This document shows, one piece after another, positions 3,132 through 18,420 of a DNA stretch of 64,000 nt. This DNA comes from Candidatus Magasanikbacteria bacterium UBA922 (GTDB taxonomy: Bacteria > Patescibacteriota > Patescibacteriia > Magasanikbacterales > UBA922), in NCBI GenBank assembly GCA_002293825.1, contig DBDW01000002.1, positions 18,059 through 82,058 on the forward strand, read 5' to 3'. Below the pieces are notes generated by a model. That model saw only the letters and a list, made by a program, of their open reading frames with translations, searched no databases and was not told the origin of the DNA. The position numbers and the translations under genes were made by a program. How positions within the stretch are numbered: position 1 is the stretch's first letter; the number at the start of each line of letters is the position of its first letter.

Positions 3132-4064
3132 CTATGCTCGTTTTCTCTTGTCCCAACGATGTGAAACGACCAATAATTGAGACGCAATGAAGATAGAAGA
3201 GTACGTACCAAAAAAGATTCCGATAATCAATGCAAGGACAAAATATCGCACTGATTCACCTCCAAAAAAGAACATTGCAGCAAGTACAATCAAAACAGTA
3301 ATCGATGTGTTTACTGAACGAATAAATGTCTCATTAAGCGCTCGATCTACCGTAACTTCGAATTCAGATGTGCCATATTTATTCAAATGCTCACGAATAC
3401 GGTCGAAGACGACAATGGTGTCATGTACAGAAAAACCAAGAATTGTAAGTAATGCGAGCACGAATGAAATACCCACTTCAACACCTAAAAAGTGCCCAAG
3501 AAGTGAGAACGCACCCATCGTAATAATTACATTATGGAACAATGCTACAATTGCGGCAATTCCATATTTCCACGAAGCTACCGGTCGAGAAACTTTTCTG
3601 AACGTAAATGCAATATATCCTCCAATAGCTACAAGTACTGCAAATACTGCCTGCACCGATCGTTCTTTAAGCGACTGGCTAATCGCAGGACCAATAGTTT
3701 CAATACTTTCTTCAAGAACCTTGTTACCCTGAGAAGTTTCAGTTGCCTCAACTTCAAACGCACCACGAACACGAGTAAGAATGTCTTGATGTTCATCTTC
3801 AGTAATAAAACGTAACCGAACCAAAAAGCCTTGCTCCCCAACCGGCTGAACAATAGCCTCTCCATAAATATCACGAGGAATTACCTCTTGCATGGCAGAC
3901 AATTCAGGTCTTTCTTCAGTAAATGCAAACTCAATCAATGTTCCTCCAGTAAAATCAATACTTGGTTTGAGACCATACACAATCAAACTCACCACACTCA
4001 CTGCTACACATACTGCTGAAAATAGGAAAAAATATGCTTGTTTTTTAACAAATGGAATATTCAT
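3132..4064 (-). CDS. secF: protein translocase subunit SecF
   Basis: 310 aa polytopic membrane protein. SecDF-type C-terminal TM bundle present (…VLIVLAAMFFFGGESVRYFVLALIIGIFFGTYSSIFIAS…). Lies immediately downstream of secD with a 5-nt gap. Confidence 0.85.
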   Translation of the reverse strand: MNIPFVKKQAYFFLFSAVCVAVSVVSLIVYGLKPSIDFTGGTLIEFAFTEERPELSAMQEVIPRDIYGEAIVQPVGEQGFLVRLRFITEDEHQDILTRVRGAFEVEATETSQGNKVLEESIETIGPAISQSLKERSVQAVFAVLVAIGGYIAFTFRKVSRPVASWKYGIAAIVALFHNVIITMGAFSLLGHFLGVEVGISFVLALLTILGFSVHDTIVVFDRIREHLNKYGTSEFEVTVDRALNETFIRSVNTSITVLIVLAAMFFFGGESVRYFVLALIIGIFFGTYSSIFIASQLLVVSHRWDKRKRA

Positions 4065-4069
4065 AGTAA

Positions 4070-6142
4070 TTACGATTGTTCTTTTGAATGACGTCCTGAC
4101 CCGAGGAACAACGGTCCTCCATCACGTGCAGTAAACCATGGTACTACAAATCGTAACATCACACGAGTTGCAGTAATTGCGCTAAAGAGACTAACCAAAA
4201 TACCAATAATAAGCGCAATAGCGAATCCTTTCACAAAATTAGTTCCAAGCCAAATAAGTAACGCACAGGTAATCAGCGTAGAAACATTACCATCACGAAT
4301 CGATGTCCACGCACGTTTAAACCCTTCTTCAACAGCAACCTTGAGACTCTTTCCTTGCTGTAATTCTTCTTTCATACGTTCAAAAATAAGAATATTCGCA
4401 TCAACCGCCATACCAATAGAAAGAATAAAACCCGCGATTCCTGCAAGTGTCAACGTAACTCCAATTAGTTTGAACAATGCAAGCGTAACTACAATATACA
4501 GTGCAAGTGAAATAACCGAGAGAACACCAGGAAGACGATAATACAATGCCATAAACAACATGACCACAACTACTCCAATAATACCAGCAGTAACACTCAT
4601 AGAGACCGACTGAGCACCAAGTGTTGCACCTACTGTTTCCTGACTTGCCAATTCTACTGGAACTGGGAGTGCACCTGTATTCAATCGCTGAGCAAGCATG
4701 CGTGCCTCCTGTATATTTCCAGCACCTGTAATAACTGCCTGACCATCGCGAATCACGTTTTGAACTCTTGGGTCACTAATTGCTTGTCCATCAAGAAAGA
4801 TAGCAACCTGCTTACCAAGATTCCGCTCAGTAATTTCGGCAAACAATTTTGTACCCTCATCATTAAAATTGAGAGATACCTGCACAGCACCGGTCGTAGG
4901 GTCGGTCACAACCTGTGCTCGGGAAAGCTGTTTTCCTGAAAGACCGGTATCCTTCCATTCTTCCTGCGGAGGAACAATGTCAGTTTTCGATCGTGTATCA
5001 ATAAAAATTCGAGAGACTTCATACGCCTTACCTATTCGTTCATCCTGCTTGTAGATCACATGAAAACCAAAAGCAGTTTCCACTGGACCAATAATCTGAC
5101 CTTTTTCTGCAGAAAATAACGCATTTTCAAATTCAGACACTGCAAGCCCTCGAGGCACCCACCCAAGACTACCTTTAGTAAATGATACTGTTGGTTCAGT
5201 AGAGTTTTCCTCAGCAAGTGCTGCAAAATTATCACCCGTTGCCTGATCAAACAATTCTTGAGCTTTTGCACGTGCTTCATCCTTGTTATACATCGGATTA
5301 TCACACTGTACAGCACCTAAATAACAAATCAAAATATGACTTGCGAGCACTTCAGGACCGCTCTCACGCTCCCCACCTCTCTTCAAAATATTGTATCCAT
5401 CCAATGTAGTGAGTAGCGTCTTCGAAATAGTTCCTGCTGTAGAGCTTGCAGCCCATGCATAAATTTCTGGTTCAGTAGTAGTCGAGGTGAGATACCCCAG
5501 ATATCCCCCATTCACTTTACTAGCTTCGTCTTCAGATAATTCACGTGCAAGTTCTTCAAATGACTCTTTTCGATTTAGACGTCTCAAAATATCGTTCGCT
5601 CGTTTCTGCGCGTCGGCATTGTATGTTTCAAGTTCTTCTTGTTCTTCAGCGGTTAATTCACGTGGAGGTTCTGTATTTATCTCCTTGAATTCCAAAATTG
5701 GTGTCTGGCCAATCAAATCTACTGCCTGCTGGATATCCTGAATACCCGGTAAATCTACAGTCAATCGATACGAATCACCAACCTTACTCGTTTGCACCTG
5801 TGGCTCAGACACACCAATACCACCCACGCGTCGCTCGATTACATCACGTACACCCTCTAGCGCATTCGATCGCTCACTCTCAGCAATCGCGCTCATATCG
5901 GCTTCATACGTCAAATGTGCCCCACCTTTAAGATCCAGACCGAGTTTAAAAGGTTTATCAGGAACCAAAGGTAACGCAAGCGCAGCCTTTTCATTGAGCC
6001 ATGAAATTACAGTATTCACTGGCTTCGGATACACAAACACACCCGACACAATAAGTAAGGCAAAAATTCCCACAATCCCCCATTTAACTTTCGACCGAAT
6101 ATCACTAGTATGACGTCTCATAAATTCAAAAATCACTAACAA
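4070..6142 (-). CDS. secD: protein translocase subunit SecD with an inserted tandem parvulin (PpiC-type PPIase) module
   Basis: 690 aa. N-terminal TM helix, then a SecD P1 head (…AIFLDGQAISDPRVQNVIRDGQAVITGAGNIQEARMLAQRLNTGALPVPVEL…) and the C-terminal SecD TM domain. Residues ~267-365 (ASHILICY…GSLGWVPRGLAVSEFENALFSAEKGQIIGPVETAFGFHVIYK) form a canonical parvulin domain. It is preceded by a degenerate parvulin-like repeat (FEELARELSEDEASKVNGGYLGYLTS). Confidence 0.85.
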   Translation of the reverse strand: MLVIFEFMRRHTSDIRSKVKWGIVGIFALLIVSGVFVYPKPVNTVISWLNEKAALALPLVPDKPFKLGLDLKGGAHLTYEADMSAIAESERSNALEGVRDVIERRVGGIGVSEPQVQTSKVGDSYRLTVDLPGIQDIQQAVDLIGQTPILEFKEINTEPPRELTAEEQEELETYNADAQKRANDILRRLNRKESFEELARELSEDEASKVNGGYLGYLTSTTTEPEIYAWAASSTAGTISKTLLTTLDGYNILKRGGERESGPEVLASHILICYLGAVQCDNPMYNKDEARAKAQELFDQATGDNFAALAEENSTEPTVSFTKGSLGWVPRGLAVSEFENALFSAEKGQIIGPVETAFGFHVIYKQDERIGKAYEVSRIFIDTRSKTDIVPPQEEWKDTGLSGKQLSRAQVVTDPTTGAVQVSLNFNDEGTKLFAEITERNLGKQVAIFLDGQAISDPRVQNVIRDGQAVITGAGNIQEARMLAQRLNTGALPVPVELASQETVGATLGAQSVSMSVTAGIIGVVVVMLFMALYYRLPGVLSVISLALYIVVTLALFKLIGVTLTLAGIAGFILSIGMAVDANILIFERMKEELQQGKSLKVAVEEGFKRAWTSIRDGNVSTLITCALLIWLGTNFVKGFAIALIIGILVSLFSAITATRVMLRFVVPWFTARDGGPLFLGSGRHSKEQS

Positions 6143-6203: not shown

Positions 6204-7025
6204 TCACATCTGCTTTTCAACCACAATCATTGCAGTACGTTCCTCAGTAATCGGCACATGATTCCCAGTTTCGTAATCCCGAAACGAATCTTCAAAATTT
6301 TGGTATGAATACGTGAATTTTTCTCCCAATCGGGTCCCCGGATCGTTCGTAATGATCACTTGATTCACCTCATCATACCCGATTGCAACAAGCATGTGTC
6401 GCTCAGGCCCGGGTGGTTTGAAATTTGGATTAGCGAGAATTTGTCCATTAAATGGAATAATCAAAATATTTCCTGCTGCAAGCTCACGCTTCACATCAGT
6501 GAGTGTAATGTCATATTCCACACGCCCACCCATATACCCATAAAATTTTTTGAGTAATCGTGTATATGTATCTTCGGCAGACGTATCCCGATATCCGCCG
6601 TAGTGAGTTTCCTCCCAATTAGACATGTTTGTTATTTCTTCAAGAGCTTCTTGTCGAGTAAGTTTCTGACCCGTTGCCCAACGATACGCCATAAGTACCG
6701 ACGCTTCTTCGCACCCATCTTGTTGACGAGAATCTGACCAATCGCCCAACGGCGCTTGCGGAGTGAACGGAACATCATGCACGATCTTCACTGGAAGCTG
6801 TTCTGTGGTTGAGGTGGGGACCAGCTCGTCCGGTTCGGTTGAAGTGGTAATTATCGGCTCAGGAATAACGTCAGGTGTGTGAGTAACAACCTCAGTAGTA
6901 GAAGGTGTGCTAGTGCGAAAAACTATCGCTGGTCGTGATAACGAAAAAAGATAAGACGCTACGAAATAAGTTCCAAATAATATAGAAACAAAAAATAAAA
7001 GTATAGAACTAATTCGCTTCAACAT
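6204..7025 (-). CDS. membrane-anchored peptidase C39-like (Peptidase_C39_2/YvpB-like) domain protein
   Basis: N-terminal TM helix, a Thr/Pro-rich linker, then the Cys motif QDGCEEASVLMAYRW and the His motif HMLVAIGYD…ITNDPG, typical of C39-like papain-fold domains. Confidence 0.5.
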   Translation of the reverse strand: MLKRISSILLFFVSILFGTYFVASYLFSLSRPAIVFRTSTPSTTEVVTHTPDVIPEPIITTSTEPDELVPTSTTEQLPVKIVHDVPFTPQAPLGDWSDSRQQDGCEEASVLMAYRWATGQKLTRQEALEEITNMSNWEETHYGGYRDTSAEDTYTRLLKKFYGYMGGRVEYDITLTDVKRELAAGNILIIPFNGQILANPNFKPPGPERHMLVAIGYDEVNQVIITNDPGTRLGEKFTYSYQNFEDSFRDYETGNHVPITEERTAMIVVEKQM

Positions 7026-8785: not shown

Positions 8786-11635
8786 TTATGCATTTTTACC
8801 ATGACACTTCTTATACTTGAGTCCTGATCCACATGGACACACATCATTCCGTCCGATTTTTCCTTCCACCGCTTTTCCTGCGCCAGAAGGTTTTGCTGCA
8901 GCCTCTGATTCACTCGTCTTCTTGGCACCTTCAAGTGTCATTGTGTCATCAGCCATGACGCTCGGCGCAAGCTGAATTCCTGTATGAATTTTGAAAATTG
9001 TATTTGCCACCTCACGCTGAATTCCTGACAACAATCGATTGAAGAGATGAAAACTCTCTTGTTTATATTGTACCAAAGGATCTCGCTGTCCATAGCCCTG
9101 AAGTCCAATTCCTGCACGCAAATGATCAATGGTAATCAGATAATCGACCCACATCATATCAATCGTGCGAAGCAATACACTACGTTCAAGCTCAACCATC
9201 ATCTGTGCACGAACACGTGGATCTGACTGTACATTTTCAAGAGATTGAGCAAAAACTGTATACGCAGATTGAGCTTCTGCAATCAATTTTTTCACCACCT
9301 CATCACGTACTTCTATTGGATTTCTATTTTCCTGTGCCGCAGTTGACACAATCGACTCAACCTCAGCTACATGAGTAGCCGAAAGCGGCATCATCGCATT
9401 CATACTCTCCACAATTTCTTTAGTATTCCACTGTGTCTCATCTTCGGTACTCGTATGCATAGATACGATAGTTTCGATCTCCTGCTCAACCATTTCAAGA
9501 ATAATTTCACGAAGAGTACGGGGACGAGTTTCTTCTTCAGAAACTACAGATTCTGTATTTACCGCCATATCGATTTCTCGTTTCGCAGCATCGAGAATTT
9601 CACGTCGTTTCTTATAAATCACGTCACGTTGCTTGTTCAATACATCATCGTATGAAAGCAAATGTTTACGAGTATCAAAATGATGTGATTCAACTTTTTT
9701 CTGAGCACTTTCGAGAATCCGCGTAATCATCTTCTGCTCAATCGGCATGTCATCCGGAATATTGAATCGAGTCATCACCGCTTTCAAACGATCACCTGAA
9801 AAAATACGCATAAGATCATCCTCGGTCGATACAAAAAATTGTGTTTCACCCGGATCACCCTGACGCGCGCTTCGTCCACGAAGCTGATTGTCGATACGTC
9901 GTGACTCATGTCGTTCGGTTCCCAGAACAAATAACCCTCCTGCAGCAACTACTTTTTCTACATCTTCTTTTACAGAAGGAACTCCACCCAATTTGATATC
10001 GACACCACGACCTGCCATGTTCGTTGCTAAAGTTACCGCACCTGGACGTCCTGCCTGTGCAATAATCTGTCCTTCACGTTCATGATTTTTAGCATTCAAA
10101 ATCTCATGTTCAATTCCCTGACTAAACAAATATGCACTCAATTCTTCATTTTTTTCAACAGAAATAGTACCGATAAGTACAGGCTGCCCCTTTGCACGTG
10201 CTTCTCGCACCTTCTCAACAATCGCTCTATATTTTCCACTGGTATTTTTATAAATACGATCAGGGTGATCAGTTCGACGATCACCTTTATTCGTCGGAAT
10301 AGTACTTACTTCTAATCCATAAATCTTGAAAAATTCTTCTTCTTCAGTCTTTGCAGTACCAGTCATGCCACTCAATTTGTCATACATGCGAAACAAATTC
10401 TGGAATGTAATCGTCGCCAACGTTCGTGATTCTTTCTGAATAGGCACCTTTTCTTTTGCCTCAATTGCTTGATGCAATCCTTCGGAATAGCGACGTCCGG
10501 GCATTTTTCGACCAGTAAATTCATCAATAATAATGATTTCACCTGTATCAACAATATAGTCTTTATCACGTTTGAACAAAAATTCAGCTTTCAATGCCTG
10601 CTCGATATGATGTACAGTTCTAATTCCACCCTCGACATAAATATTGTCAACATTGAGCCATTGTTCAAACTTTGCAATTCCTGAATCAGTAAGCGTTGCA
10701 CTGCGCAATTTTTCATCAATATTGTAATCCTCATTCTGAACAAGCATTTTCACCAAATCAGCAAAACGATAATACTGATCGGTAGCTTCCTCAGCTTGTG
10801 CAGAAATGATAAGTGGCGTACGTGCCTCGTCGATCAAAATAGAATCAATTTCATCAACAATTGCATAATGCATTTCGCTTCCCGGTCGCATCACCATATC
10901 TTCAATTCGCTGCACCATGTTGTCACGAAGATAATCAAAACCAAATTCATTATTGGTTCCATAGGTAATATCGCATCGATATGCCTCTTGTCGTGATGCT
11001 GGTCGCAAATATTCATTTTCCACTTCAAAACTACCTTTTTCATCACGCTCTACATCAGCCTCAGATCCTTCTACCAATTCTACACGTGCCGCATGCTCTA
11101 CAGTACCATCTTCAGACTTTTTGTGCGCATCATAGACAAACGTAACTCGCTGATTTTGCACAATACCCGTCGTCATTCCAAGAAAATCATAAATCTGTCC
11201 CATCCATACCGCATCTCGTTTTGCAAGATAATCATTTACAGTAACCACATGCACACCCTTCCCTGCAAGTGCATTCAGGTATACAGCAAGAGTCGCTGTA
11301 AGCGTCTTACCTTCTCCAGTACGCATTTCCGCAATCCGCCCTCGATGAAGTGTGATACCTCCAATCAATTGAACATCATAATGACGCATCCCGAGTGTGC
11401 GTTTTGCCGCTTCACGCACCACCGCAAACGCTTCAGGCAATATATCATCCAAAGTTTCTCCTTTTTCAAGACGAGCTTTGAATTCGTCTGTTTTTGCGCG
11501 CACCTGTTCATTCGTTAATTTTTCATACTCGTGCTCAAGCGCATTAATACGGTCTACCAATGGCTGAAGACTCTTAATTACCTTTTTATTCTGGTCTGGA
11601 AATAGTTTCTGTAAAAAAGACATACGGATATACAA
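8786..11635 (-). CDS. secA: preprotein translocase ATPase SecA
   Basis: 949 aa. DEAD-like motor motifs present (MRTGEGKTLTATLAVYLNAL, DEIDSILIDEARTPLIIS, TNMAGRGVDIKLGG). C-terminal zinc-binding tail CPCGSGLKYKKCHG. Confidence 0.95.
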   Translation of the reverse strand: MYIRMSFLQKLFPDQNKKVIKSLQPLVDRINALEHEYEKLTNEQVRAKTDEFKARLEKGETLDDILPEAFAVVREAAKRTLGMRHYDVQLIGGITLHRGRIAEMRTGEGKTLTATLAVYLNALAGKGVHVVTVNDYLAKRDAVWMGQIYDFLGMTTGIVQNQRVTFVYDAHKKSEDGTVEHAARVELVEGSEADVERDEKGSFEVENEYLRPASRQEAYRCDITYGTNNEFGFDYLRDNMVQRIEDMVMRPGSEMHYAIVDEIDSILIDEARTPLIISAQAEEATDQYYRFADLVKMLVQNEDYNIDEKLRSATLTDSGIAKFEQWLNVDNIYVEGGIRTVHHIEQALKAEFLFKRDKDYIVDTGEIIIIDEFTGRKMPGRRYSEGLHQAIEAKEKVPIQKESRTLATITFQNLFRMYDKLSGMTGTAKTEEEEFFKIYGLEVSTIPTNKGDRRTDHPDRIYKNTSGKYRAIVEKVREARAKGQPVLIGTISVEKNEELSAYLFSQGIEHEILNAKNHEREGQIIAQAGRPGAVTLATNMAGRGVDIKLGGVPSVKEDVEKVVAAGGLFVLGTERHESRRIDNQLRGRSARQGDPGETQFFVSTEDDLMRIFSGDRLKAVMTRFNIPDDMPIEQKMITRILESAQKKVESHHFDTRKHLLSYDDVLNKQRDVIYKKRREILDAAKREIDMAVNTESVVSEEETRPRTLREIILEMVEQEIETIVSMHTSTEDETQWNTKEIVESMNAMMPLSATHVAEVESIVSTAAQENRNPIEVRDEVVKKLIAEAQSAYTVFAQSLENVQSDPRVRAQMMVELERSVLLRTIDMMWVDYLITIDHLRAGIGLQGYGQRDPLVQYKQESFHLFNRLLSGIQREVANTIFKIHTGIQLAPSVMADDTMTLEGAKKTSESEAAAKPSGAGKAVEGKIGRNDVCPCGSGLKYKKCHGKNA

Positions 11636-12419: not shown

Positions 12420-13388
12420 TTAAAACGTATAAATTTCTTCTTCAAGTTCGATTCCAAATTTCTCGTACACCACGGTCTTTATCTGAGCAATCAATTGACG
12501 CACATCATCTGCAGTAGCATTCCCTGTATTCACAATAAAATTACCATGCTGATCAGATATCAATGCTCCACCCACTTGAAGTCCCTTGAGTCCCGCCTGC
12601 TCGATGAGCCATCCTGCAGAAATTTTTCCAATACTCAAAAATTTTTGTACTTTCTCGCTATATTTATCAAAATGTTCAATGAGCTGCTCTCGGTATCTCC
12701 CCGTATCAGGATTCTGAAAAATACATCCCGTAGAAGCGTGTCCTTGTGGCTGTGTAGAATTACGATACATAAGATATTCAAGTGCATGTTTCAACAATTC
12801 CGTATCTTCAGTAGGCTCAAGCTTTAATACTACACGCAATACCACACCTCCAGAAACCTTGAACGCACTTGTGCGATACCCAAATTCACATTCACCAAGA
12901 CTAAGTTCTCGCACCTCTCCATTCTGATATACGAAGACCCGTTCGACTGAATCGCTCATATCAAACCCCATTGCCCCAGCATTACCACGCACAGCACCAC
13001 CGATAGTTCCAGGTACTCCCACTCCCCACTCAAATCCAGTCAACTGCTCTTTCATCGAAAAACGTGCAACTGAAACCGTGAGTGCACCCGCATCTGCAAA
13101 AATCAATGAGCCTTCGCGTCGAATTTCCTGATACGCGGGGTGCAATACCACTCCTTCAAATCCCTGATCACTCGCGAGCATATTTGACCCGCCACCAAGG
13201 ATCATATACGGAATACCTACCCCATCCAAATACCGCATCAACGCAACATGACCATCGAGCGTTTCCACCGACACAAAATACTGAGCAGGCCCACCTATCT
13301 TAAATGAGGTATGTTTCGAAAGCTGTTCATTCAGCTTGACCGCTCCATATTGTTTCAATTGTTCAATCAATTGGTTCATAGATTGCAA
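12420..13388 (-). CDS. murB: UDP-N-acetylenolpyruvoylglucosamine reductase MurB
   Basis: FAD-binding PCMH domain (FKIGGPAQYFV…ILGGGSNML) plus the MurB C-terminal domain. 322 aa. Confidence 0.85.
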   Translation of the reverse strand: MQSMNQLIEQLKQYGAVKLNEQLSKHTSFKIGGPAQYFVSVETLDGHVALMRYLDGVGIPYMILGGGSNMLASDQGFEGVVLHPAYQEIRREGSLIFADAGALTVSVARFSMKEQLTGFEWGVGVPGTIGGAVRGNAGAMGFDMSDSVERVFVYQNGEVRELSLGECEFGYRTSAFKVSGGVVLRVVLKLEPTEDTELLKHALEYLMYRNSTQPQGHASTGCIFQNPDTGRYREQLIEHFDKYSEKVQKFLSIGKISAGWLIEQAGLKGLQVGGALISDQHGNFIVNTGNATADDVRQLIAQIKTVVYEKFGIELEEEIYTF

Positions 13389-13457
13389 TTATACACAGAA
13401 ACAGCTATATTATCAGGAGTCAATATCTCTCGTATCAATTCGTATAACACAGTTTTT

Positions 13458-14684
13458 ATGCTCTCCCAGATTATCTACATTACCCGCGATATCGAACGAG
13501 CGCTTGGATGTCTCACTACGCCCTCTGTGTCCATTATCTCAAATGATTCAGACTTTGCCAAGTCAATCAAAGAACGCTATCCTAAGCAAATTTTTCTTAT
13601 TGAAGACAACAAAACATTAGACACATACGAACTTCTGGAACACCCAAAAACAACAGAAGTGCTTTCACACCTTACAAATCCTCAGATACTCGTATTCAAA
13701 AATACATCTCGAATCGAAAAATGGTGCGCCACAAATAACTACCCTCTTCTCAACCCTCCAGCAAAACTAGCAGCCTCACTCGAAGAAAAGCTCACTCAAC
13801 TTGAAACACTCGACGATCTCATCGAACTCATGCCTCGATACAAAAAAAAGACTATTGAGGATCTACATTGGTTTAGAGAACCATACATTATCCAATTCAA
13901 CCATTCACATACTGGTTCAGGAACAGTGCTGATTGATTCAGAAGAAAAACTGGATGAATTAAAAAAAGTATTCGCAAAACGCGAATGCCGTATTGCTCCG
14001 TTCATCAGCGGTCCTATTTTTACCAGCAACATTGTCGTTGGAATAGATGCTATATTGACCGGAAATATGAGTTACCAGATAACCGGCTTACAACCATTCA
14101 CCGACGAAACATTTGCTACTATCGGAAACGATTGGGGAGCTCCCTATAGTATACTAAACGATTCAGAACGAGCAGAATACGAACTCATTAGTCGTGAGAT
14201 TGCAAAAAAACTACAAAGTCTCAGATGGAAAGGATTATTTGGAATAGATGCCATTTGGAGTACCCAAGAAAAACGATGGTACGTCATAGAGATCAACGCA
14301 CGCCAGCCAGCAAGCGCTTCATACGAAAGCATGCTTCAAAAAAATACAAATTCCCAACCCTCAAATCTCACCATACTCGAAGCACATCTAAAAGCACTTC
14401 AAGGAGAATCTCTAAAAGAATATTCTCTCACTAAAATTACAGACGGTGCTCAAATTATTCATCGAGTTACAAAAAAAATCACATCACCTGAGCAAGCAGC
14501 ACACATGCTACAAAAACTTGATGAGCTTCGTTTTGAGACATGGAATACAAAAAAACTCACCATAATCCCATACGAAAACACAAGTCATAATAGCGATTTA
14601 CTTAGAATCCAATCAGAAAAAAGTATCATACACGGTGATGAATTTACTGAAGTTGGAGAAAAAATTTTGAAGATTATTCAATGA
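13458..14684 (+). CDS. ATP-grasp domain protein (amidoligase; not a canonical Ddl)
   Basis: C-terminal ATP-grasp core present (…WKGLFGIDAIWSTQEKRWYVIEINARQPAS…). The start was moved to the ATG at 13458 to avoid a 78-nt antisense overlap with murB. It lacks the Ddl N-terminal MKIAVLxGG motif. Confidence 0.6.
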   Translation: MLSQIIYITRDIERALGCLTTPSVSIISNDSDFAKSIKERYPKQIFLIEDNKTLDTYELLEHPKTTEVLSHLTNPQILVFKNTSRIEKWCATNNYPLLNPPAKLAASLEEKLTQLETLDDLIELMPRYKKKTIEDLHWFREPYIIQFNHSHTGSGTVLIDSEEKLDELKKVFAKRECRIAPFISGPIFTSNIVVGIDAILTGNMSYQITGLQPFTDETFATIGNDWGAPYSILNDSERAEYELISREIAKKLQSLRWKGLFGIDAIWSTQEKRWYVIEINARQPASASYESMLQKNTNSQPSNLTILEAHLKALQGESLKEYSLTKITDGAQIIHRVTKKITSPEQAAHMLQKLDELRFETWNTKKLTIIPYENTSHNSDLLRIQSEKSIIHGDEFTEVGEKILKIIQ

Positions 14685-17878: not shown

Positions 17879-18420
17879 TGATTGCTAAATTAATTTATAA
17901 AAAATTGAATATGCCAAGAAAATACGAAGGGGGTCCACAATATCCAGATAACGAGACAAAAAATTCTAAAAATGAAAAAAAAGTTAGTGTTGTCATTGAC
18001 AAAAACTACCTTGGACTAGAAGTGAATCACTTTGATCTACAATCACTTAACCCAAAAGTGGACATGTTGGGTAACGATAAATTTACAGAAGTTTTATTTG
18101 AAACTCAATCTGGCAACATGTATTTAATCTATCGCCTCCCAGACCATACGTTCGCAATCGCAGACGCAAAAAGCAACACAGGTAAAGGACTCAAACAAAT
18201 AAAAGGTAGTTTATTGTCTGACTCAGAAATAGCGAATGGCGTATTAGAAGTTGGAAAGAATTTTCATTTTGGTAAAGGTTGGCAGACTTCTCCTATATCT
18301 AAAATTACTTGTATCAATGGTAATAAAATATACGATGAAACACGAATACACGAACTCACAGGTGGAAAAAATTCCGACGCAAGGGATAAATTTAAAAATC
18401 GGATAAAACCTAAAAAATAA
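17878..18420 (+). CDS. hypothetical protein (GTG start overlapping the upstream stop by 1 nt)
   Basis: 180 aa, Lys-rich. Translationally coupled to the Bpt-like gene. Confidence 0.4.
   Translation: MIAKLIYKKLNMPRKYEGGPQYPDNETKNSKNEKKVSVVIDKNYLGLEVNHFDLQSLNPKVDMLGNDKFTEVLFETQSGNMYLIYRLPDHTFAIADAKSNTGKGLKQIKGSLLSDSEIANGVLEVGKNFHFGKGWQTSPISKITCINGNKIYDETRIHELTGGKNSDARDKFKNRIKPKK

Follow-up and report, generated by a model that had tools for sequence, protein, structure and literature searches.

A secD gene with an inserted double-parvulin module

We analysed a 64,000-nucleotide stretch of DNA, referred to here as the window, from Candidatus Magasanikbacteria bacterium UBA922 (assembly GCA_002293825.1, contig DBDW01000002.1, forward-strand positions 18,059 to 82,058). 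The subject of this study is its secD gene, which occupies positions 4070-6142 of the minus strand and is listed as an open reading frame (ORF) of 690 amino acids (aa) with a TTG start, as identified from the ORF list, Pfam and NCBIfam. All coordinates below refer to the minus strand of the window unless stated otherwise. The first seven codons of the gene (6119-6142) are perhaps untranslated, as the N-termini of homologues align from about Met8 and an ATG is found at 6119-6121. The gene of the partner subunit, secF (310 aa, 3132-4064; ORF list and Pfam), lies 5 nucleotides downstream of secD.

The encoded protein is a bona fide SecD. The NCBIfam secD model TIGR01129 matches it with 381.5 bits (cutoff 244.4) over model positions 1-397, and a Pfam search with the whole protein finds all three SecD domains above their gathering thresholds, namely SecD_1st (aa 97-156), SecDF_P1_head (aa 398-494, profile positions 18-114) and SecD_SecF_C (aa 496-657), in addition to Sec_GG. 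The first transmembrane (TM) helix, TM1, spans aa 21-38 (WGIVGIFALLIVSGVFVY; 6029-6082) in the AlphaFold2 (AF2) model. Next comes the N-terminal portion of the P1 base (aa 63-156, 5675-5956), which consists of the Sec_GG motif and SecD_1st and closes with an invariant LEF strand. The canonical P1 head comprises aa 396-495 (4658-4957) according to Pfam and the alignment to solved SecDF, and the C-terminal part of the P1 base together with TM2-TM6 comprises aa 496-670 (4133-4657), in which D581 and N583 of the AVDAN motif are invariant. Judged from the helices of the AF2 model, the alignment to the SecDF structure 3AQP, the invariant D581/N583 pair and the neighbouring secF, the protein has the topology of SecD, with TM1, a large periplasmic P1 domain, five further TM helices, a conserved Asp in TM4 and an adjacent secF. 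With D581 and N583 retained and secF adjoining, the SecD core looks functional from its sequence.

Using Pfam, structure alignment and AF2, we found that a double-parvulin module of 236 residues (aa 157-392, 4967-5674) is placed exactly between SecD_1st and SecDF_P1_head. In the alignment to Thermus thermophilus SecDF, aa 58-156 match residues 25-119 while aa 387-664 match residues 147-423, and about 230 residues of the window protein stand where the Thermus protein has about 27 (about residues 120-146). An earlier note, made from the DNA letters, had reported a tandem parvulin at 5047-5662, which is aa 161-366 of the secD ORF, and had placed it inside the periplasmic head. The Pfam and TIGR01129 matches bear out its claim that a genuine SecD has a tandem parvulin built covalently into its periplasmic P1 domain, and the peptide strings that it quoted are all present in the 690-aa ORF. 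The position within the head has to be corrected, as the actual site is the junction of the N-terminal P1 base and the P1 head.

Two parvulin stretches are recognised in the whole protein, both by Rotamase_3 (E=4.2e-37, best stretch aa 250-367) and by Rotamase (E=1.7e-35). The profile check on these families, which had been suggested along with the original claim, was carried out on the separate halves, and both of them are significant parvulins. Scanned alone, aa 157-262 give 59.1 bits with Rotamase (E=8.6e-16, profile positions 10-94 of 97) and 51.9 bits with Rotamase_3; aa 263-400 give E=1e-22 with Rotamase_3. A BLASTP comparison of the first domain (domain A) with the second (domain B) returned no match; they have diverged so far that a pairwise comparison misses the relationship and only the profiles reveal it. 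In a tblastn search with the module, no further parvulin was found in the 64-kb window, which is only a fraction of a genome of presumably about 1 Mb; the suggestion of the earlier note that the module compensates for absent stand-alone PpiD, SurA or PrsA is thus a conjecture.

The two parvulin domains and their topology

Domain B (aa 262-368, 5039-5359) has the canonical strand order according to Pfam and the alignments, scores above the parvulin profile threshold and has the parvulin fold. The active sites were mapped by alignment to Pin1, Par10 and the PrsA structures in the PDB. In domain B, the dual-histidine motif is formed by H269 and H361 (Pin1 H59 and H157), the acidic residue E316 stands at the position of Pin1 C113, and the hydrophobic proline pocket is present; L326, A334, F338 and T356 correspond to Pin1 L122, M130, F134 and T152, respectively. 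In most relatives position 316 is Asp and position 334 is Met. The conservation of these residues was counted over the 197 SecDs that have the whole double module. Of these, 194 have both histidines, 191 have an acidic residue (Asp or Glu) at position 316, and 194 have F338.

The extended loop between β1 and α1 of domain B contains two cysteines, Cys273 and Cys280. Both are present in 182 of the 197 proteins and both are absent from the remaining 15, so that neither ever occurs alone. This all-or-none pattern, together with the extracytoplasmic location, suggests a disulfide bond, which probably staples domain B.

The body of domain A (aa 165-258, 5369-5650) runs from the long helix α1 to β4. 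Counted in the order of the Pin1 residues H59, C113, L122, M130, F134, T152 and H157, its active-site positions are taken by R378, D205, Leu, Thr, Ile, Thr and N251. The domain reaches the parvulin profile threshold when aa 157-262 are scanned alone, and yet it has an asparagine and an arginine at the two catalytic histidine positions. This N/R combination (251/378) occurs in 123 of the 197 double-module SecDs, and the H/H combination in only 4. Nor does domain A follow the canonical strand order: there is no β1 strand ahead of α1, and a β1-like strand comes after domain B. The description of this part as a degenerate parvulin-like repeat, given in the earlier note, is apt for its catalytic residues and its topology; its fold, however, is intact, and it is a nearly complete second parvulin domain, presumably dead as a catalyst.

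The ratio of non-synonymous to synonymous substitution rates (dN/dS) was lowest within the module for domain B (0.04-0.13) and highest for domain A (0.11-0.21), which evolves fastest; the SecD core regions gave 0.02-0.15, with 0.02-0.08 for the head and TM region, all of these being rough and indicative only, since dS was 1 or more (saturated) in nearly every comparison. As the ratios are low in A and B, both domains appear to be under purifying selection.

The conservation pattern bears on the question of catalysis. The module may be a pure holdase or docking domain, in which both parvulin folds merely bind unfolded chains or partners. The same has been proposed for the parvulin domain of PpiD, whose importance has been questioned in the literature (PMC9643414), and for the P1 domain of SurA. 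Domain A lacks both histidines and the pocket residues, and the window protein has E316 and A334 in place of the usual Asp and Met. We nevertheless regard this explanation as unlikely. The catalytic positions of domain B are retained in almost every double-module SecD and the domain has the lowest dN/dS of the module; so tight a hold on catalytic positions would be unexpected for a mere binding surface. Moreover, the relatives with a single parvulin domain keep both histidines as well. Domain B is therefore most likely an active, non-phospho-specific prolyl isomerase, as far as its sequence can tell. Two points, besides the saturation of dS, weigh against this reading: the active-site map depends on Pin1 and Par10 reference sequences entered by hand, and the combination of E316 and A334 could make the window protein's own activity weaker than that of its relatives.

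The topology of domain A was derived from two AF2 models. The full-length model, built on an alignment of 56 homologues, has a mean predicted local distance difference test score (pLDDT) of 81 overall and of about 90 over the module, and the model of the module alone (aa 157-392) has a pLDDT of 94.6 and a predicted template modelling score (pTM) of 0.77. In both of them DSSP assigns two unbroken strands of 24 residues each, aa 249-272 and aa 359-382. We read them such that β4 of domain A continues into β1 of domain B, and β4 of domain B into the trailing strand KAYEVSRIFID (aa 372-382, 4997-5029). In the models, these two long antiparallel strands would cross both β-sheets and lock the domains together. 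The trailing strand resembles the β1 strand of parvulins (compare ASHILI) and is interpreted as the displaced β1 of domain A, where it would supply the strand that is missing from the N-terminus and would place R378 at the first catalytic histidine position.

Four observations bear on this assignment. Firstly, histidine at position 251 is always accompanied by histidine at position 378 (4 of 4), although the converse does not hold, as 15 of the 197 SecDs have the combination E/H. Secondly, the SecDs with a single parvulin domain show the same order in a simpler form, with α1 to FGFHII followed by a linker, KASHILIKT and then the P1 head. When the trailing strand of these proteins was moved in silico to the N-terminus, the Rotamase score rose by 9-10 bits, the Rotamase_3 coverage changed from profile positions 33-115 to 13-115, and the Rotamase_3 score increased from 98.8 to 110.4 bits in one protein (P0140) and from 100 to 109.4 bits in another (P0129). 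Thirdly, P0140 (562 aa) and a relative of 446 aa (P0186) are about 80% identical in both flanks and differ by a clean indel of 115 aa, which is exactly the permuted parvulin unit, trailing strand included. Fourthly, the model of the module alone folds confidently without the LEF strand of SecD.

Because of the covariation of H251 and H378, the permutation test, the P0140/P0186 indel and the fold of the isolated module, we conclude that domain A is a circularly permuted parvulin, in which the helices and β2-β4 come first and β1 last, with domain B nested inside it, after β4 and ahead of β1. Some points count against this conclusion. Re-permuting the window protein itself gains only about 2 bits, which we attribute to the degeneration of its trailing strand, and the pairing of that strand with domain A is read indirectly, from DSSP strings, covariation, the permutation test and the indel. 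A tandem duplication of a permuted unit would give the same nested arrangement. The presence and absence of the cassette in P0140 and P0186 implies in addition that it was gained or lost recently in evolution.

Other assignments of the strands were considered and rejected. The LEFKE segment (aa 150-155) is not the β1 strand of domain A, given that it is invariant in SecDs without an insert and that the module-only model folds without it. A pairing of H269 with domain A and R378 with domain B, as in two tandem permuted units, is contradicted by the near invariance of H269 and H361, by the fact that all proteins with H251 have H378, and by Pfam, which aligns aa 250-367 collinearly to the whole profile. 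The arrangement of the two domains in the module is not reproduced by any PDB entry (query-normalised template modelling score at most 0.41).

Occurrence in related bacteria and neighbouring genes

A fusion of this kind might be an artefact of assembly or gene calling, namely a chimera of secD and a prsA-like gene, and the earlier note had named a chimera as one way in which its claim could fail. The ORF is, however, uninterrupted and its composition is uniform, with a GC content of 0.42-0.45 along the module, the same as in the flanking sequence. Pfam finds Rotamase as well as SecD domains in all of the 120 closest proteins (58-100% identity), whose sources are NCBI, JGI, ENA and Logan assemblies; those with a name are mostly SecDs of Candidatus Magasanikbacteria or Patescibacteria. 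Together with the apparent purifying selection on both parts of the module, this conservation across assemblies, which extends to hundreds of independent ones, leaves the artefact with a practically negligible probability.

A survey of relatives, which had likewise been proposed in advance, was performed in two ways. Scanning species-representative genomes gave 528 confirmed matches, of which the best 80 loci, mostly from Magasanikbacteria, were examined. In 75 of these 80 the N-terminal P1 base, the module, the head and the TM region follow each other in this order within one SecD gene. The five weakest of the 80 are stand-alone tandem parvulins of 30-33% identity in records with Bacteroidota-type or Kapabacteria titles. 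An exhaustive HMMER search of 1.84 billion cluster representatives (50% identity) found a parvulin at the site of the module in 68 of the best 150 representatives, namely in 57 SecDs and 11 SecDF fusions. From the N-terminal P1 base to the P1 head, the representatives with a parvulin have a median gap of 248 aa, and those lacking one a median of 36 aa. The SecD-parvulin design is thus real and widespread in bacteria of the candidate phyla radiation (CPR).

Several forms of the design were found. The window protein belongs to a class of double-parvulin SecDs of about 670-705 aa. SecDs with a single permuted parvulin and both histidines intact (about 550-625 aa) occur, judged by record names, in Kuenenbacteria, Buchananbacteria and Parcubacteria. 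Peregrinibacteria and Gracilibacteria, likewise identified by name, have SecDF fusions of about 1015-1120 aa, with a parvulin in 118 of the top 120. Finally, there are SecDs of 775-940 aa with further inserts. In five of the latter (P0175, P0166, P0203, P0220 and P0237), the parvulin is preceded by about 180 additional residues and followed by 60-160, and two of them (P0203 and P0220) show two separated parvulin stretches; these long forms may hold three domains or other additions.

Some further observations concern the same site and the same records. In eight SecDs (P0153, P0246, P0167, P0213, P0143, P0263, P0137 and P0139), SecD_1st and the P1 head are separated by inserts of about 70-190 aa, some without a Pfam match and others with only a faint, degenerate parvulin signal, and this junction seems to be a general target of domain insertion. 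Five close relatives of SecD or SecDF proteins with a parvulin (P0293, P0297, P0435, P0438 and P0487) have no Rotamase domains and are candidates for losses or fragmentary gene calls. Records of Patescibacteria-type SecD-parvulin proteins are often titled 'uncultured Gammaproteobacteria bacterium', and a few are titled Binatia, Acutalibacteraceae or Kapaibacterium. These titles (at L003, L005, L007, L009, L055, L056, L061 and many other loci) look like placeholders or wrong labels, because the SecD cores of such records match that of the window as closely as Uhrbacteria cores do.

In the neighbourhood of secD, a 949-aa ORF at 8786-11635 reads as SecA-like in translation and has a C-terminal zinc-binding motif (CPCGSGLKYKKCHG). 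It lies 2.6 kb upstream of secD, which places three sec genes inside 9 kb. Directly upstream of secD, positions 6204-7025 encode a protein of 273 aa, in which a hydrophobic segment at the N-terminus and a Peptidase_C39_2 domain (E=1.8e-12) were recognised. This protein is possibly a cysteine peptidase that is exported, and its gene may belong to one run with secD and secF. Further away, a MurB-like ORF (12420-13388) and an ATP-grasp ORF (13311-14684, plus strand) overlap by 78 nucleotides at their 5' ends as listed, and one of the two start codons has probably been called too far upstream.

Proposed function and comparison with known systems

The closest known proteins by fold and sequence are the SecDFs of Thermus thermophilus and Deinococcus radiodurans (PDB 3AQP, 5YHF and 5XAN) and the SecD of E. 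coli. They share TM1, the P1 base and head, TM2-6, the Asp of the AVDAN motif and the SecF partner with the window protein. In contrast, solved SecD and SecDF structures have about 27 residues at the site of the 236-aa double parvulin, and none of them contains a folding-catalyst domain. The P1 head of SecDF has an amphiphilic cavity that crosslinks to precursor proteins, and its swinging under the proton-motive force takes it through the Super-F, F and I forms (PMC5974789).

Separate parvulin proteins have been found in contact with SecD in various bacteria. PpiD touches SecD's periplasmic domain and works with SecDF late in translocation (PMC9643414). The parvulin domains P1 and P2 of SurA were placed on the P1 head of SecDF by AlphaFold, in agreement with low-resolution electron microscopy (EM) (PMC9987972). 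The parvulin lipoprotein Mpn444 of Mycoplasma pneumoniae crosslinks to SecD and was proposed by its authors to fold chains emerging from the translocon (bioRxiv 10.1101/2024.09.05.611430). The reading of the fusion as a Rosetta-stone link, put forward in the earlier note, is consistent with these contacts.

We think it fairly probable that the window protein is a functional SecD with a mobile P1 domain, which carries a rigid two-parvulin module at the junction of base and head and acts as a translocon-tethered foldase or holdase. The module would ride on the part of SecDF that captures unfolded chains from SecYEG and swings under the proton-motive force, and would thereby be positioned at the translocon exit to act on the chains leaving SecYEG. 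Domain B would catalyse prolyl isomerisation of the emerging chains. For domain A, peptide binding or scaffolding is the most likely role, comparable to that of SurA's inactive P1 domain, since both its histidines and its proline-pocket residues have been lost. The fusion would make covalent an association of SecD and parvulin that is held in trans elsewhere (PpiD-YfgM, SurA, PrsA and Mpn444). Peptidyl-prolyl isomerase (PPIase) activity, contact with substrates and coupling to the movement of P1 are what we infer by analogy with these systems. It speaks against the proposal that the full-length AF2 model has a pTM of 0.44, so that it does not confidently predict where the module stands in relation to the P1-head cavity and SecYEG.

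This uncertain placement also enters into a different explanation, according to which the module is a structural spacer, lever or partner-binding arm and the parvulin fold only a convenient rigid scaffold. Such an arm would lengthen the swinging P1 head or change its gearing, or would stretch to the cell wall, the S-layer, YidC or SecYEG. AF2 indeed predicts a rigid two-domain unit (pTM 0.77), with a relation to the head that is not confidently predicted, and other SecDs have inserts of 90-190 aa at the same site that lack any Pfam match or are degenerate parvulins. However, a spacer would leave unexplained the catalytic signature and the probable disulfide of domain B, which are kept across deep divergence, and also why unrelated bacteria put parvulin chaperones beside SecD in trans. 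We therefore consider it very unlikely and favour the tethered foldase or holdase.

SurA of E. coli (PDB 1M5Y) is the best multi-domain PDB match to the module. SurA contains two consecutive parvulin domains, one inactive and one active, and the pair resembles domains A and B in this respect. Their arrangement is nevertheless unlike that of the module (root mean square deviation about 15 Å, query-normalised template modelling score 0.39), and SurA's parvulin domains show the canonical order of strands, without nesting or permutation. SurA is also a soluble periplasmic protein built on an N/C chaperone core, which the window SecD does not have. PrsA of Bacillus and Staphylococcus and the PpiD-YfgM complex of E. 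coli are membrane-anchored extracytoplasmic parvulin chaperones or foldases that act on the output of SecYEG, and the parvulin domains of PrsA are the closest sequence relatives of domain A. In contrast to the fusion, PrsA and PpiD are separate polypeptides, each of which combines a single canonical parvulin with an NC chaperone domain. In the window SecD, Pfam recognises neither SurA_N nor another chaperone domain, and the NCBIfam models of PrsA, SurA and PpiD match the parvulin part only, far under their cutoffs (for instance 71 against 343 bits). Mpn444 and Mpn436 of M. pneumoniae are comparable as surface parvulin-type PPIases of a reduced-genome bacterium without an outer membrane. They differ in being lipoproteins that act in trans as a trimer, with another overall architecture and no covalent link to SecD.

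SecD, the parvulins and their functional association in trans are known. New are the covalent fusion, the permuted and nested topology and the distribution over the radiation; full-text literature searches, which left out most subscription journals, brought up no paper on a SecD-parvulin fusion or a circularly permuted parvulin. We put forward as a speculative and rather doubtful extension that in many CPR bacteria the SecD-borne PPIase is the sole extracytoplasmic one, mounted on the P1 head as on a motor, and that its host domain is the first natural circularly permuted parvulin. If this were true, the pulling of chains from SecYEG and their proline isomerisation or hand-over would be mechanically coupled in one polypeptide by a motor-mounted foldase, and a second parvulin would be nested in a permuted host domain through a shared β-ribbon.

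The source databases name the fusion proteins just SecD or SecF, although their precomputed Pfam lists show Rotamase, and a PPIase in SecD would go unnoticed in surveys by product name. The permuted and nested topology, together with the clean presence or absence of the cassette between flanks of about 80% identity, offers a case study in domain insertion. How periplasmic folding factors are coupled to the Sec translocon is still debated, and the present evidence for contacts of PpiD, SurA and Mpn444 with SecD is indirect, coming from crosslinks, low-resolution EM and AlphaFold models. A fusion that is conserved in several CPR lineages and appears to be under purifying selection adds an independent argument from evolution that the P1 domain of SecDF is the proper place of a parvulin foldase, and it also shows the position of that foldase on P1. 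The SecD-parvulin fusion may hence serve as a compact single-chain system for structural and single-molecule studies of the coupling between translocation and folding.

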